Below, piece by piece: positions 23,674 to 42,420 of a DNA stretch of 64,000 nt. The position numbers and the translations under genes were made by a program. How positions within the stretch are numbered: the stretch's first letter is position 1; each line of letters starts with the position of its first letter. The notes beneath the pieces were generated by a model. That model ran no database searches and was not told the origin of the DNA. It saw only the letters and a program-made list of their open reading frames with translations. The DNA lies in sequence record NC_028925.1. One strand, written 5' to 3'. This DNA comes from Escherichia phage vB_EcoM_VR25.

Positions 23674-23700
23674 GATTATCTCCTTTTGTTTGATGGGATA

Positions 23701-24528: not shown

Positions 24529-24802
24529 TAATTAATCGCACATCCTGGTCATACGTCAGGAGGCTACGAGTTATAATACCCTTACATGGTCCAGAAATAA
24601 ATTCCAGAGTAAAGTAAGGAACCAACTTCATCAAGCGAATACTCGGAGCAGTGCAACGAAATCTGGACCCAATAAAAGGTCCAGACAAAAACACATACTC
24701 AAAGAAATTTGCTTTATTAAAGATTTCAAAATTCTTTACGAAATCTTCAGACCTAACCTTTGGAATAAAATAGATTTGGTCAAAAAGCTCTTCATGAGTC
24801 AT
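24506..24802 (-). CDS. Hypothetical protein, 98 aa
   Basis: Track ORF, ATG start; every codon checked against the sequence. Confidence 0.5.
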   Translation of the reverse strand: MTHEELFDQIYFIPKVRSEDFVKNFEIFNKANFFEYVFLSGPFIGSRFRCTAPSIRLMKLVPYFTLEFISGPCKGIITRSLLTYDQDVRLISDWKKYV

Positions 24803-25329
24803 TATTGCATTCCTATCACAAAGAATAACGGCAAAGGCTTATCACCTTGACACATAAATTTATTCATCATTACCTGATAAGCTTCATAGAACTTATCCAT
24901 TGCAGGGAGGCGAATAGGTTCTTCAATAATGATTAAAAGACGCGTAAAACGCAATCCACGGTACTTATGGAAATTATCTTCATCAAGGAAACTGCGTACA
25001 GTATCATAGACAACGAATCCAGGTCGTTCAACTTGAAGATGTGGTTGTGCCTTAGAAACCCGCTTTATTATATCACAGATTTCTCGGGAGCGATGTGAAG
25101 AACTCGACATAACAATCACATCATTACCCTTGGAAACCCAATCCGCAGCGAACTGTGCAAGGGCACTTGTTTTACCTGTTTGACGACCACCATCAAGTCG
25201 AAGAGTACCAAACTCTTGCATTCTTGAAGCAGGTTCATACCAGGTGTATTGGTCTGAATCTAAGCGTTCAATGGCGCGTTCAGCGAAGGCGTGCATTAAG
25301 GTTAGATAAATTGGAGTTAAAAATTTCAT
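24802..25329 (-). CDS. P-loop NTPase-like protein, 175 aa
   Basis: Walker A-like GGRQTGKTS and Walker B-like hydrophobic strand LLIIIEEP. Confidence 0.45.
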   Translation of the reverse strand: MKFLTPIYLTLMHAFAERAIERLDSDQYTWYEPASRMQEFGTLRLDGGRQTGKTSALAQFAADWVSKGNDVIVMSSSSHRSREICDIIKRVSKAQPHLQVERPGFVVYDTVRSFLDEDNFHKYRGLRFTRLLIIIEEPIRLPAMDKFYEAYQVMMNKFMCQGDKPLPLFFVIGMQ

Positions 25330-25490
25330 AGTTGTCTCTTAGTTGTAGGGCCATTCCTTGGCACATTAATTCGTCCATGTATCCGAATGTAAACCCCTTA
25401 CCGCACTCGGGCTCGACCTTATTACAGGTAGGGAAGGGTCCATCACTCAGAGGACACGACGTTCATGAGGAGAGGGTCGGTTTGCCTTTA

Positions 25491-25790
25491 TTAAAAAGAA
25501 CCAGAGCCTTTAATTGTGTTCTGGCGACCTTTATTTTCGAATTCAGAATGGTCGATTTCGTATGCTTGTGCTACGCCAAAGGCCTTTTTAACTTTAGATA
25601 AAGAACCTTTAGATGTAACAATATTAAAAGTATTGCCTTTGGTAAAATCAACCAAATCCACTTGCACACCCTGTTTACCGAGGCTTGCTACAATAGCATC
25701 AACATATTGTTGGTCTAAATTGCCTTGAACCCCAATTTGAAATGCTTTAGGAACTTTGGCTTCTGTGATAAATTCTTGATAAGTTAACAT
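25491..25790 (-). CDS. Internal-protein-like protein with N-terminal capsid targeting sequence (CTS), 99 aa
   Basis: Starts MLTYQEFITE, matching the T4 IP capsid targeting sequence MKTYQEFIAE; ATG start. Confidence 0.6.
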   Translation of the reverse strand: MLTYQEFITEAKVPKAFQIGVQGNLDQQYVDAIVASLGKQGVQVDLVDFTKGNTFNIVTSKGSLSKVKKAFGVAQAYEIDHSEFENKGRQNTIKGSGSF

Positions 25791-25819
25791 TATACACTAT
25801 CCCATCATAAAGTAAACAG

Positions 25820-26083
25820 TTACGCTTTACCGCCAGAAACAATACCAAAGGTCTCAAAGTCCCATTCAATATCGTCAACATCAACTTTCTTACCAGCAAC
25901 CACAAATGCGATTTCGCGACGTTTTGCATAGGTAACAATTTCTTTGCCATCGCCGCCAAAGAAAGAATAACCATTGCGCTTCATGGTGCCAAAGTCTTCA
26001 GCATCACCAGCGAAGGCACGGACTTTAAAAGCACCAGTAGGAGCTTTAGCAGATTCAGTAATAAATTCTTGATAAGTTTTCAT
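25820..26083 (-). CDS. Internal-protein-like protein with CTS, 87 aa
   Basis: Starts MKTYQEFITE; ATG start. Confidence 0.65.
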   Translation of the reverse strand: MKTYQEFITESAKAPTGAFKVRAFAGDAEDFGTMKRNGYSFFGGDGKEIVTYAKRREIAFVVAGKKVDVDDIEWDFETFGIVSGGKA

Positions 26084-26096
26084 AATGTCTCTTTAG

Positions 26097-26411
26097 TTAA
26101 GCTTTAGGGAAATCGCGCAAAAACGCATCATAAAGTTTATTACCAATGCGACGGAATGCTTTTGCAGCATGAACGTTATCTGGGTTTGCAATTTTAATCT
26201 GCATTACATGACTACCAGCCCATGATTTAGCTTCGTCATAATAACCTTTAATTTCTTTAATAGTCTTGCGTTTTCCACCAGGACCATCAACAGTAATTTT
26301 CCACGAACCAGTGCTTGTTTCACTTGGTGGGGTTAACTGTTCAATCCAGACATAACCACCTTCAACACGTTGTTGAGTAGATTCAGTAATAAATTCTTGA
26401 TAAGTTTTCAT
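26097..26411 (-). CDS. Internal-protein-like protein with CTS, about 104 aa
   Basis: In-frame MKTYQEFITE at 26411 (track ORF starts 4 codons earlier); preceded by TATAAT and leader. Confidence 0.6.
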   Translation of the reverse strand: MKTYQEFITESTQQRVEGGYVWIEQLTPPSETSTGSWKITVDGPGGKRKTIKEIKGYYDEAKSWAGSHVMQIKIANPDNVHAAKAFRRIGNKLYDAFLRDFPKA

Positions 26412-26458
26412 TTTATATTCCATGTTTGGTTGATAAAATCATTATACAACCTTTTTAG

Positions 26459-26875
26459 TTAAGCGTACACAGCTTTCCCATAGTATTTGTACCAGGTAGG
26501 CTTTTGAGAAATTTTCTCATTCAGTCTGGATTGACTGATTTCAATTGACCAGATTGATGGTTGATAATCATTCTTCCATTCATCAGGAATATCATTTAAA
26601 TCTTGGGTAGAAATATCTTTTATATTAAACCCTCGCTTTAAACATTCAGCAATAAGTTCTTGATGGCGGTTTTTAAGGAACAAAAGCTTATCATAAAAGA
26701 AGGTGACATGACCAGTTCCTAAAAGAAAAGATGATGGGATTTTAAAGTCAGACACCTTTTTACCATTTTGTACATGCTTACGAACAGCCCCAAACACGCG
26801 AGGAAGCTCACGGTATTCAGCCATAAGGTGTTGGTCAGCAAGTTCAGATACCAGGGTTAAATTAATGCGAGTCAT
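26459..26875 (-). CDS. denV: Endonuclease V (pyrimidine-dimer DNA glycosylase) DenV
   Basis: 138 aa, ATG start; [35 protein letters not shown]... near-identical to T4 DenV. Confidence 0.95.
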
Positions 26876-26904
26876 GTTTGTTCCTCCAAGTAGTTGATGG
26901 GATA

Positions 26905-26934
26905 ATAATACATCAATACGAGGAGGTTGTAAAC
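26905..26934 (-). promoter_or_regulatory. Early promoter upstream of denV
   Basis: Minus strand GTTTAC-18 nt-TATTAT then leader TCCCATCAACTACTTGGAGG; -35 overlaps the upstream stop. Confidence 0.55.
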
Positions 26935-27216
26935 TTATTTTGTGGAAGCAGCCGAGATATATTTTTCAAGACGCTGTTTCATCAGCGAGCCGTTCTTAGC
27001 GATTTCTTCCGGTTTATCGCACATACGCAATAGAGCTTCAAGCTTAGTGATATCAGATGTCCGCTCAAATTTGCGAGTATCTACCTTACTAGCAAGTTCG
27101 GAAATACGCGCTAACAGACTTTCGGCTTCTACCAAAGCTGTGCCCAGCTTAGTTGCAAATGCGTCAGTAGCTTCATTAAGAGTGGTCACGGTCAAAAATT
27201 CATTATAGGTTTTCAT
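26935..27216 (-). CDS. Internal-protein-like protein with divergent CTS, 93 aa
   Basis: Starts [10 protein letters not shown]...; ATG start; 3-prime to gene e as ipIII is in T4. Confidence 0.55.
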
Positions 27217-27697
27217 ATACTTTCCAAGTTCCTGTTTTAAATGTTGAGATTACACGTTTCGCTCGATTAGGTGTTTGTTTGTACCATTTGGATTGAGCCA
27301 GGTTAACAGCAGCTTCGTCCCAACGTTTCTGTTGAAGCAACCGAAGGGAGTTAGTAAACCCAGCAACGCCGGCTTCACCCATTTGGAAGACCATATTAAT
27401 CAGGGCACAGCGACGAACTTCGTCAAGACTATCATACACTGGTTTTAATTTAGCATTACGCATAACACTCGCACGTGCTTTTTCCACTGAACGGTTAAAC
27501 AAGGTTTCAGCTTCAACCTGGGTAATCCTACCGTTGCAGACGCGACCCATGAGCTTGTCGAGCTCGGCACGAGCAACATCTTTCGATGGGTTCTTAGTTA
27601 TCAGTTGCCCGATACCGATGGTCCAATATCCTTCGGTATCTTTATACAAATCCAACTTACAACCTTCATCTATGCGTAACATTTCGAATATATTCAT
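27203..27697 (-). CDS. e: Lysozyme (endolysin) gp e
   Basis: 164 aa, ATG start; [12 protein letters not shown]...[13 protein letters not shown]... very similar to T4 lysozyme. Confidence 0.95.
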
Positions 27698-27698
27698 A

Positions 27699-27726
27699 AT
27701 ACCCCCTTATATAGGGGTATTTATTA
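27699..27726 (-). promoter_or_regulatory. RBS-sequestering hairpin of gene e with embedded late-promoter-like TAATAAATA
   Basis: Stem ATACCCC/GGGGTAT encloses the G-rich SD just before the ATG at 27697; TAATAAATA overlaps the 5-prime arm. Confidence 0.6.
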
Positions 27727-28185
27727 TCCGAAAATTTGAGTCAAAACCTTGTACATCGATTTACCCATTACGTATTGCCATTGACTCGGTTTAATCAGAG
27801 CGAAAGCATCAAACTCTGGGACCGAACTACCATCCGGGAAGGTATGATATGCGGAGCATTTACTATGTCTGAATTGCTCATGCTCGACCGGGACCGTGTA
27901 CAAAAACAGGTGAAGGTTTTTGTTATCTGAATAACGGAACTCGCCTAGGTCTTTTAAGAATGCCGGGTCATACCGGGTAAAGCCTGTTTCTTCTTCACAT
28001 TCACGCATAGCTGCTTCAATCGGGGATTCACCGGCTTCAACATGACCCTTAGGGATATCCCATTTATGCGCAGGCATACCCGGTTTGCGAGAACCAGTCA
28101 CACGACCCATGAATAACTCTTTATCTTCAGTCATGAAAATAATGCCAGCAGATAATTCTTTCACCACGTTTTTCTTACTCATCAT
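27724..28185 (-). CDS. nudE: Nudix hydrolase NudE
   Basis: Nudix box GHVEAGESPIEAAMRECEEETGF; first ATG at 28185 gives about 153 aa (T4 NudE about 151 aa); track ORF extends upstream. Confidence 0.85.
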   Translation of the reverse strand: MMSKKNVVKELSAGIIFMTEDKELFMGRVTGSRKPGMPAHKWDIPKGHVEAGESPIEAAMRECEEETGFTRYDPAFLKDLGEFRYSDNKNLHLFLYTVPVEHEQFRHSKCSAYHTFPDGSSVPEFDAFALIKPSQWQYVMGKSMYKVLTQIFG

Positions 28186-38431: not shown

Positions 38432-38665
38432 TTATTTTTTACGGAAAATTGATTTATACTTGTTAGCCCATTTCTCGATAACTTCTGCCGGACCCTGGAT
38501 AACAAAATAGTCCCCAAACTCTTCACCGCCGAGCTGACCGTAATTATCTAAGGCGTCGCGGAGAGTTCCATAAGGCATTTCGCCCATTTTATCTTTCTTG
38601 CCGGTGTAAATGAATTGCACTTTAACATCAGCAGTTTCATTAATAAATTCTTGATAAGTTTTCAT
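38432..38665 (-). CDS. Internal-protein-like protein with CTS, 77 aa
   Basis: Starts MKTYQEFINE; ATG start. Confidence 0.65.
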   Translation of the reverse strand: MKTYQEFINETADVKVQFIYTGKKDKMGEMPYGTLRDALDNYGQLGGEEFGDYFVIQGPAEVIEKWANKYKSIFRKK

Positions 38666-38690
38666 GTTGTCTCCAGTAGTTGATGGGATA

Positions 38691-38722
38691 ATTATACTGC
38701 ATTTATCCCATCGTGTACATTA
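38691..38722 (-). promoter_or_regulatory. Early promoter cassette
   Basis: Minus strand -10 TATAAT with weaker -35 (ATGTAC), then leader TATCCCATCAACTACTGGAGAC. Confidence 0.4.
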
Positions 38723-39019
38723 CATTTTTGAACCGCGAATTACACCATAAGCGGCGAAGTCGTCAGTGATATTTTTAGGGGTGTTCTTACCAGTTTCAAT
38801 ATATGCAATGCTGGATTTCTGACTAAATGAGGTAATTTTATTATAGTTAGAGTCAAGGAAGGTATAACCATTTTTACGCAGCTGGTCAAAGTCTTCAGCG
38901 TCGCCTTTACCTTTGAAGTCAACCCATTTGTATGTGTTTTTCTTCTGAAGGCCCAGAGGCCAAGTTTTTGCTTCTGCCAGGTAATTATTTTCTACCAAAA
39001 ATTCGTGGAACGTTTGCAT
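38720..39019 (-). CDS. Internal-protein-like protein with CTS, 99 aa
   Basis: Starts MQTFHEFLVE; ATG start. Confidence 0.6.
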   Translation of the reverse strand: MQTFHEFLVENNYLAEAKTWPLGLQKKNTYKWVDFKGKGDAEDFDQLRKNGYTFLDSNYNKITSFSQKSSIAYIETGKNTPKNITDDFAAYGVIRGSKM

Positions 39020-39027
39020 TTGAAATC

Positions 39028-39300
39028 CTATTTTAGATAAATTGCGTATTTTTTATAACCAGCTGTCTCATGGCGGAGACCCTTGTCATTGGCAAAACGC
39101 TCAATGTTGTTGATTTGGTTCTGGTCAAGTTCAGAGATGTCAAACGCGAAAAAGTTGCGTTTGTTACCAATTGTTATATGGTCAGTCAAGTCAATGCTGT
39201 ACAGGTGATTGATATTGTCAATCATAGCTTTGACTGCTTTACTAATTTTTACTTCTTCATTCAGTTGGGACTCGTTGAAAAGTTCATTAAAAGTTTTCAT
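39028..39300 (-). CDS. Internal-protein-like protein with CTS, 90 aa
   Basis: Starts MKTFNELFNE; ATG start. Confidence 0.6.
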   Translation of the reverse strand: MKTFNELFNESQLNEEVKISKAVKAMIDNINHLYSIDLTDHITIGNKRNFFAFDISELDQNQINNIERFANDKGLRHETAGYKKYAIYLK

Positions 39301-39308
39301 AAGAAACC

Positions 39309-39641
39309 TTATTTATACAGTTTAGCTAGTTCTTTACGTCCGCGAGCAGACATAATGAATTGTTCATCACCAATTTTGAAATAAGCCATACCGCCGTCAA
39401 CAGCGATGCCAATTTCTTTAGTACCTTCTTTGCCTTTCCACTTGCCACCAGATTTCAGGACAGCTTCAACTGCAGCTTTGGAATATTTGGACGTTTGAAA
39501 ACGTTCATTACCAATCTGAAAGAAAACACCATCTGCATTTTTGGATAAACCAAATTTCAGAGAGCCTTCACTATCATCAATTGATTTGGTTTCATTGATG
39601 GCGGATTCGGCTAAAAACTCGTTATAAGTCTTGATGTTCAT
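39309..39641 (-). CDS. Internal-protein-like protein with CTS, about 110 aa
   Basis: In-frame MNIKTYNEFLAE at 39641 preceded by GGAG; track ORF begins 11 codons upstream. Confidence 0.6.
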   Translation of the reverse strand: MNIKTYNEFLAESAINETKSIDDSEGSLKFGLSKNADGVFFQIGNERFQTSKYSKAAVEAVLKSGGKWKGKEGTKEIGIAVDGGMAYFKIGDEQFIMSARGRKELAKLYK

Positions 39642-39701: not shown

Positions 39702-40386
<685 letters not shown>

Positions 40387-41745: not shown

Positions 41746-42420
41746 TTATTTTATTAATGTGTTAAGTCTTAGCTTAGTCATAAACGGATAACGTTCCAAC
41801 ATTGGCTTTACCCAGTATCGAGGATGCAATTCCTTTTTATATGCTAGGACCAACTCTCGAGCTTGCTCGACGGTATCAACTCCGAAGTTTTTACACATTT
41901 CTTGCCTATCTTTTTCCCACCGGCGCTTTCTCAATTCATCCTGAATCTCTTTATTTTTAAAATGTCCATTATTGCGAGAATGTTTTGTGCCCTTGGTTGG
42001 ACTGTAATGTCTTCCTTTGACAAACCCATCCGGAACATCTTCCCATGGAAATAGTTTTATCGATTTGACACCATTAGTAAAGTAAACTTTACCGGTTTGA
42101 CTTTTAGAAATATTGTCAGCGTGTCTACGTCTTAACCAGCCAAATAATTTATTATTACGTTTCAAATACTTGCTTGACTGACTCATAGATGTGGCGGCAA
42201 AACTTAAACCTGGATTTGTAGGATATATTTTAACCAATAGTTGATGGGCTACATAATGTTCCTCGGGAGTCAAATCGACTAGGTTATCAGGAGCATTTGA
42301 ACCACCCATACATTTCGGAATGATGTGATGAGATTCTTTATATGAAATCAGGACCCTGTTACGGGCCCTTTCAATTAACGATGAATATATAAACTGATAA
42401 TTCAAAGTGAATTTCTCCAT
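41746..42420 (-). CDS. Free-standing HNH homing endonuclease, 224 aa
   Basis: ATG start; HNH motif [30 protein letters not shown]; inserted between genes 2 and 3; start overlaps the last 19 nt of gene 2. Confidence 0.8.

Follow-up and report, generated by a model that had tools for sequence, protein, structure and literature searches.

What do the four short genes around denV in Escherichia phage vB_EcoM_VR25 encode, and how did they come to be assembled there? This question is raised by positions 25491-27216 of the DNA stretch analysed here (64,000 nucleotides of sequence record NC_028925.1; this whole stretch is termed the window). The four open reading frames (ORFs), designated A to D, begin with the capsid targeting sequence (CTS) known from the internal proteins (IPs) of phage T4; in our reading, held with a probability of roughly 0.7, they are cassettes of e-denV-vs.8, a polymorphic IP locus, in a Gaprivervirus resembling VR20; the cassettes evolve by shuffling and their products are injected defence inhibitors. 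All genes lie on the minus strand, in the transcriptional order e-D-denV-C-B-A-vs.8 (25491-27697 plus vs.8): e (phage lysozyme, Pfam PF00959; 27203-27697) heads the presumed late transcription unit and its end is overlapped by the start of D (26935-27216, 93 aa; Ip5 / RB69 ORF127c family) by 14 nt; denV (26459-26875; endonuclease V, Pfam PF03013 Pyr_excise with 1e-15, phrog_1183) is not an IP gene and splits the array into two IP slots, with D on the e side and C-B-A on the vs.8 side; C (26097-26411, 104 aa; Ip10 family) and B (25820-26083, 87 aa; RB69 ORF125c family) both carry the leader MKTYQEFITE, and A (25491-25790, 99 aa; Ip7 family) the leader MLTYQEFITE. For C, the listed ORF runs to an upstream ATG at 26423; the 104-aa form was used as annotated in relatives. 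This location matches one of the two polymorphic IP loci of T4-type phages (e/denV, the other being 57B). The coordinates and N-termini given for the four CTS-bearing ORFs in a first-pass annotation of the window were exact, as was its placement of three IP genes 3' of denV and one between denV and e.

The CTS motif occurs in the window far beyond chance: a loose CTS pattern was matched eight times in the six-frame translation (mean of 200 shuffles: 0.20) and the strict pattern TY[QNE]EF[IL] six times (shuffles: 0.015), every CTS match being the N-terminus of a minus-strand ORF of 77-110 aa, four of them in the denV array and four at 38432-39641. For T4 IPIII, the N-terminal 10 residues are enough for packaging; targeting depends on residues 4 and 7 and processing on residues 8 and 10, with cleavage by the gp21 protease taking place behind L/I-X-E (PMC9026906, a review of Black's work). 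Y4 and F7 are present in all four proteins; A, B and C in addition possess I8 and E10 and thereby the cleavage motif ITE10, whereas D has L8 but V10, so that its first L/I-X-E is LNE15 and cleavage is predicted only there. Since the junction between LNE and ATD is conserved in RB69 ORF127c despite differing residues 5-12, a leader of 15 residues is likely for D. The predicted mature proteins comprise 89 aa for A (9.55 kDa, isoelectric point (pI) 9.3), 77 aa for B (8.30 kDa, pI 6.2), 94 aa for C (10.54 kDa, pI 9.6) and 78 aa for D (8.60 kDa, pI 8.8), in keeping with the bodies of about 75-95 residues estimated beforehand. The K2L change in the leader of A is common to the window and phage VR7. 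As the CTS is the only thing that the families of A-D have in common, selection on the leader itself can be argued. By analogy with T4 IPIII, for which this has been shown, the CTS (Y4, F7) would dock the pre-proteins on the gp22 scaffolding core of the prohead, and cleavage by gp21 behind ITE10 in A, B and C and behind LNE15 in D would leave proteins of 8.3-10.5 kDa in the head together with the DNA. VR20, the closest relative, encodes gp21, gp22, gp67, gp68 and alt, the genes for which fall outside the 64-kb window.

With respect to expression, the only late-promoter-like site for the array is AATAAATA (27718-27725, minus strand) upstream of e, with 7/8 matches to TATAAATA; no terminator-like site was found on the gene strand inside the array. 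The e-ipIII-ipII-denV locus of T4 likewise has its only TATAAATA sites, two in number, just upstream of e. Because the late-promoter sites sit solely upstream of e, read-through from e is the likely late route in both phages, and late minus-strand transcription of A-D would proceed accordingly from this promoter, possibly complemented by early transcription from sigma-70 promoters of the promoter-early stem-loop (PeSL) type. Directly before the ATG of e (27698-27740, minus strand), AATAAATA is followed by the hairpin CCCCTATATAAGGGGG; the arrangement presumably resembles the T4 set-up, in which early transcripts sequester the ribosome-binding site of e and late transcripts start inside the hairpin.

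PeSL cassettes have been described by Arbiol 2010 (PMC2839356) and Comeau 2014 (PMC4122927), the latter giving TTTACW-N17-TAYWAT as the T-even consensus. An early-promoter consensus of this type with adjacent stem-loop was found in the array, and the motif recurs in the window: the cassette upstream of denV (26876-26934, minus strand) consists of TTTACA-17-TATTAT (26933-26905), then TTATCCCATCAACT, then GGAGG. The 14-mer TTATCCCATCAACT is represented on the minus strand of the window by five exact copies (5333, 19577, 26892, 38388, 38678) and three near-copies, two variants being located at 23688 and 42239, i.e. by eight sites at no more than two mismatches (0.55 expected). The five exact copies, without exception, and the variant at 23688 have GT(T/G)TACA-N17-TAYWAT on their 5' side and GGAG plus a start codon on their 3' side; the variant at 42239 is devoid of a promoter and Shine-Dalgarno context. 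These sites look like mobile early-promoter cassettes of PeSL type that are scattered through hyperplastic regions. The B-to-A spacer (25789-25819, minus strand; 29 nt) contains a truncated PeSL-type cassette, TTTACT-16-TATAAT (25816-25789), the -10 box of which overlaps the ATG of A according to the promoter scan. The spacer comprises 56-57 nt with hairpin and GGAG in VR20, CJ20, ECML-359 and phage 212, versus 29 nt in the window and VR7; through the 27-nt deletion common to the latter two, one half of the PeSL hairpin has been lost along with GGAG and the original ATG-AAA.

The early-type promoters (TTTACW-N17-TAYWAT) upstream of denV and A, together with a late-promoter search that revealed no canonical TATAAATA inside the array and with the evident use of CTS DNA as recombination homology, would also fit proteins that are not packaged at all: the CTS-like N-termini would then be inherited recombination scars, and A-D ordinary early accessory proteins of the cytoplasm. 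Such an origin is highly improbable, as Y4, F7, I/L8 and L/I-x-E are kept despite divergence of the DNA (D shares 22/30 nt with B and C), as the first 10 residues suffice for packaging in T4 (PMC9026906), and as ipII and ipIII of T4 are similarly without a late promoter of their own.

The arrangement of the cassettes differs among close relatives, as became apparent from the comparison of nine Gaprivervirus loci with flanks of more than 90% identity. The denV-vs.8 slot holds C, B and A in the window, VR20, VR7 and CJ20, combined with D in the e-denV slot of the window and VR20, with an empty e-denV slot in VR7 and with an IPII-like gene in CJ20; B and A are found in ECML-359 (e-denV slot empty) and phage 212 (with a new 89-aa IP in the e-denV slot), C and B in UPEC01 (e-denV slot empty), and A as the single gene of the denV-vs.8 slot in MN01 (IPII-like gene in the e-denV slot) and YenM_P8 (e-denV slot empty). 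Such polymorphism of presence/absence and order within one genus is the pattern expected of arms-race genes. The spacer after denV (26412-26458, minus strand; 47 nt in the window) is, as a 48-nt sequence, essentially identical across the nine loci (one substitution in MN01), whichever IP gene (C, B or A) comes first. A CTS-coding repeat of 39 nt was detected by repeat search in B (26045-26083, minus strand) and C (26373-26411, minus strand), the copies being 95% identical and the first 30-33 coding nt of both genes the same; the copy in ip6 of the second IP array (see below) differs at one position. In MN01 and YenM_P8, the A gene starts with C-type CTS DNA (ATGAAAACTTATCAAGAATTTATTACTGAA; ..TTTATTACTGAA) joined to the A body, whereas A with its own upstream spacer usually reads ...TTTATCACAGAA; from this fusion it follows that recombination junctions lie inside the CTS codons. 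Further signs of shuffling come from RB69, where the order of B and C is reversed, and from RB32, whose Ip5 and Ip7 family members occupy the other IP locus. According to the comparison, recombination within CTS codons and at promoter cassettes of the PeSL type removes, adds and rearranges IP cassettes. Mechanistically, the CTS-coding repeats (30-39 nt) and the PeSL cassettes between the genes would offer portable homology for unequal or inter-phage recombination. As in described PeSL elements, the cassettes are flanked by spacers that contain TTTACW-N17-TAYWAT and an inverted repeat; the mapped junctions, however, are located inside the CTS codons and not in the PeSL. A shuffling model for IP cassettes was reportedly proposed by Repoila et al. 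as early as 1994. In the passages of later papers that cite this work, 10 or more Ips with a common leader are mentioned (PMC12373910, PMC3012670).

Within the denV array, the bodies behind the leaders are unrelated, as had been claimed: pairwise BLASTP of the leader-less bodies of the six window IPs first found and of T4 IPI, IPII and IPIII yielded nothing below an E of 0.08, and in a profile-profile alignment with hhalign the A and B families matched over 15 leader columns only. The comparison with IPI, IPII and IPIII that the first-pass annotation had called for gave E values of 0.15 or worse, and a tblastn search of the window with the T4 IP bodies gave no match; its view that T4 ipII/ipIII carry other cargo is borne out. 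A was assigned to phrog_2667 (E 2e-41), C to phrog_3966 and D to phrog_3499 (E 6e-46), with the PHROGs label "internal head protein" for A, B and D. It was observed that phrog_2667 gathers A, B and the ORF at 38720 and that phrog_3966 gathers C and the ORF at 39309; homology within the pairs A/B and C/39309 ORF was considered on the basis of this co-membership and rejected since BLASTP finds no body similarity for either pair. As the hhalign alignment of A and B is confined to the leader and BLASTP of the bodies is empty, co-membership does not denote body homology, and phrog_2667 and phrog_3966 seem to be composite families linked through the CTS.

Each body family is common among phages, though narrow in range. 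A is 99% and 96% identical to ip7 of VR7 and VR20, respectively, B 98% to VR7 gp127 and VR20 gp119 (both annotated as "internal head protein"), C 100% and 99% to ip10 of VR7 and VR20, and D 99% to ip5 of VR20; the D body shares 92% identity with RB69 ORF127c and 52% with Ip5 from RB32 and T2. In a tblastn census of 50,697 phage records, bodies of A were found in 282, of B in 204, of C in 188 and of D in 495 records, overwhelmingly of T4-like phages of enterobacteria. Within a collection of 5.8 billion proteins, the A-D families were restricted to T4-like phages and without Pfam domain (15, 5, 2 and 4 clusters), and the large protein databases contained no CTS-less homologs of A-D that would hint at a function. 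Searches of A-D against Pfam and NCBIfam retrieved nothing meaningful and sequence searches of the PDB noise matches only; the AlphaFold2 model of A (predicted local distance difference test score (pLDDT) of 73.7) displays a generic b-a-b-b-a-b-a fold that provides no functional lead, and the model of B reached a pLDDT of 57 only. Given that family, PDB and structural searches supplied no lead, the functional assignment of A-D rests on class membership.

For this class, an anti-defence function is documented in T4. IPI*, whose fold comprises two beta-sheets with a helix region at the N- and at the C-terminal side, inhibits the GmrSD of CT596. Each of T4 Ip1, Ip2 and Ip3 blocks one variant of GmrSD (type IV restriction) without cross-protection, and Silas 2025 proposed that all proteins of both Ip loci target GmrSD variants, Ip5, Ip7 and Ip10 being outside the tested set (PMC12373910); IPIII is needed on ECOR17 (Srikant 2022, PMC9391042), and the Ip loci have been described as an anti-defence hotspot (PMC12373910; PMC3012670; PMC9391042). 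By this analogy A-D are probably anti-defence cargo: the proteins would be injected with the DNA, act in the first moments of infection, and each most probably block, in stoichiometric fashion, a single variant of a host defence directed at DNA, in the manner of T4 Ip1-3.

That the mature proteins are basic in three of four cases (pI 8.8-9.6), small and, by T4 analogy, abundant (some 1000 IP molecules lie within the DNA; PMC3012670), with no A-D body resembling a known inhibitor, might alternatively be taken to indicate a physical role of packaged IPs, i.e. DNA charge neutralisation, spacing or help in ejection, instead of specific inhibition of defences. This explanation is quite unlikely: it leaves both the unrelated bodies and the presence/absence polymorphism between near-identical genomes unexplained, B is not basic (pI 6.2), and all three T4 IPs have specific targets (PMC12373910).

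The nature of the targets is complicated by the DNA chemistry of the phage. Homologs of gp42 (dCMP hydroxymethylase) and b-gt were not found in the whole VR20 genome and the window, and no a-gt is annotated in VR20; gp56 dCTPase, alc, denA and denB are present in VR20, and because of the latter four a still-unidentified DNA modification is likely. For Gaprivervirus, the same gene absence has been reported and an unknown non-canonical base suspected (PMC8056088, PMC12115623). Where T4 has segA, b-gt and 42, between uvsX and imm, a 167-aa lipoprotein-like ORF was observed. As the closest relative is without gp42, a-gt and b-gt, targets of GmrSD type that depend on glucosylated hydroxymethylcytosine (glc-hmC) are not assured, and a GmrSD test is less obvious. 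The DNA contains glc-hmC in Tequatrovirus and arabinosyl-5-hydroxycytosine (arabinosyl-5hoC) in RB69 (PMC13326640), and the body families of A-D occur across genera that differ in this chemistry. Conceivable targets are GmrSD-like enzymes with a broad or another specificity, or else other defences that act early. On the grounds that no known hmC, 5hoC or glycosylation gene coexists with dCTPase, alc, denA, denB and eight CTS proteins, we tentatively consider that some of A-D may inhibit defences sensing the unknown DNA modification or first-response systems other than GmrSD, which is possible but doubtful; if it were true, partner finding would reveal new defence/counter-defence pairs.

The same circumstances, namely a genus without known hmC/glucosyl pathway (PMC8056088, PMC12115623) and body families that span Tequatrovirus, Mosigvirus and the T4-likes of Klebsiella and Enterobacter with differing DNA chemistries, would be compatible with injected effectors whose targets lie altogether outside restriction: host take-over (compare Alt, which ADP-ribosylates RNA polymerase), retrons, abortive infection, bacteriophage exclusion (BREX) or RecBCD. 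Bodies of only 77-94 aa that match no enzymatic domain, and the finding that every member of the class characterised so far inhibits GmrSD (PMC12373910), render such targets unlikely.

Several observations weigh against reading A-D as injected defence inhibitors. Besides the absence of the hydroxymethylation and glucosylation genes and the lack of a canonical late promoter inside the array, none of the A-D bodies resembles IPI, IPII or IPIII in BLASTP, and B deviates from the basic character of the other three. In the window, the Shine-Dalgarno sequence of A is missing and the second residue of its product is Leu (start ATG-TTA, MLTYQEF); owing to the lost Shine-Dalgarno sequence and the overlap of the TATAAT box with the start codon, translation of ip7 may be reduced. 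Finally, virion presence, cleavage and injection of A-D are deduced by analogy, and no proteomic paper on them was found among the literature searched.

A second IP array with four CTS ORFs is present in the window at 38432-39641 (minus strand), downstream of 57B (39702-40157): the ORF at 39309-39641 (MNIKTYNEFLAE), ip9 at 39028-39300 (MKTFNELFNESQLNE), a paralog of B at 38720-39019 (MQTFHEFLVENNYLAE) and ip6 at 38432-38665, all on the minus strand. The relation of B to the ORF at 38720-39019 is that of a true paralog (34% identity, tblastn E 7e-11; conserved GDAEDF...NGY...IAY...DF..G). At 39310-39317, a canonical late promoter TATAAATA was noticed, and the second array of VR20 contains one cassette (gp281) more than that of the window.

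At the other end of the denV array, the vs.8 homolog (24802-25329, minus strand) lies 3' of A. Its product exhibits a Walker-A-like GGRQTGKTS and weak profile matches to terminase large subunit and STAND NTPase (E about 2e-3 to 5e-3); in the GenBank records of UPEC01 and YenM_P8 the gene is mis-annotated as "internal head protein (IpIII)", though it is without CTS. The spacer between ip7 and vs.8 (25330-25490) is conserved, approximately 160 nt in length and of higher G+C content; as a candidate RNA element it was rejected (161 nt, no Rfam match, fold z-score -0.84). It harbours a small ORF, which in YenM_P8 measures 38 aa and overlaps the vs.8 start (annotated ORF085), and which appears to be truncated in the window and VR7 by an extra A relative to the other relatives; in UPEC01, which is without ip7, only the 3' half of the spacer is kept.

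The counter-defence hypothesis for the Ip loci is already published (Rao and Black 2010; Srikant 2022; Silas 2025). The suggestion of the first-pass annotation that A-D are candidate injected counter-defence effectors is consequently fair but not new, being explicit for the two Ip loci in PMC3012670, PMC9391042 and PMC12373910; neither are the presence and arrangement of A-D new, as they are already annotated genes of sister phages (ip7, ip10, ip5). The present analysis adds junction-level evidence of CTS-mediated cassette exchange inside a single genus, the PeSL context and a caveat on DNA modification. No phage counter-defence factors other than internal proteins are in place already at DNA entry; the Ip5, Ip7, Ip10 and ORF125c families are widespread, each being represented in 188-495 sequenced genomes, have no assigned target, and constitute short ready-made candidates for screens like those that solved Ip2 and Ip3.

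Compared with known systems, the array is closest to that of Escherichia phage vB_EcoM_VR20 (Gaprivervirus, Tevenvirinae): the 2.5-kb region, at least part of which is matched by 410 phage records, is 95.6% identical to VR20 at the nucleotide level over its full length, and the window overall approximately 96%. VR20 has the same gene order, annotated as ip7 / internal head protein / ip10 / denV / ip5 / e, with only point differences, but possesses the longer B-to-A spacer and an ip7 that starts with MKTYQEF; vB_EcoM_VR7 shows the same order and flanks, but is without ip5. RB69 (Mosigvirus; record of the AY-series of GenBank accessions) shares the D, B and C families in the order e, ORF127c, denV, ORF125c (B), ORF124c (C), ORF123c, vs.8, and differs in the reversed order of B and C and in ORF123c, the third cassette after denV, which encodes a CTS protein of a family other than that of A. 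As RB69 and VR20 both have it, the layout of one IP gene before and three after denV is not peculiar to the phage of the window. As a separate observation, RB69 ORF124c (Ip10 family) diverges from C (…RFAARVFRRIGNKLYDAY…) and ends early (…RFAAESLPSYW), which suggests a frameshift or truncation in RB69. The T4 IPs resemble A-D in the CTS leader (MKTYQEFIAE in IPII and IPIII), the L/I-x-E site, the small size and the e/denV neighbourhood; in contrast, both IP genes of the T4 locus are placed between e and denV and none after denV, there is no body similarity to A-D, and the T4 Ips have known GmrSD targets (PMC12373910), whereas A-D have none assigned. Ip5, Ip9 and Ip7 of the Tequatrovirus members RB32, T2 and T6 have the Ip5 and Ip7 body families in common with the window (about 52% and 46% identity, respectively), but these are situated in the 57B-tRNA.4 locus, "replacing ipI" (in RB32 in the order 57B, Ip5, Ip9, Ip7, tRNA.4), while their counterparts in the window occupy the e-denV-vs.8 locus.

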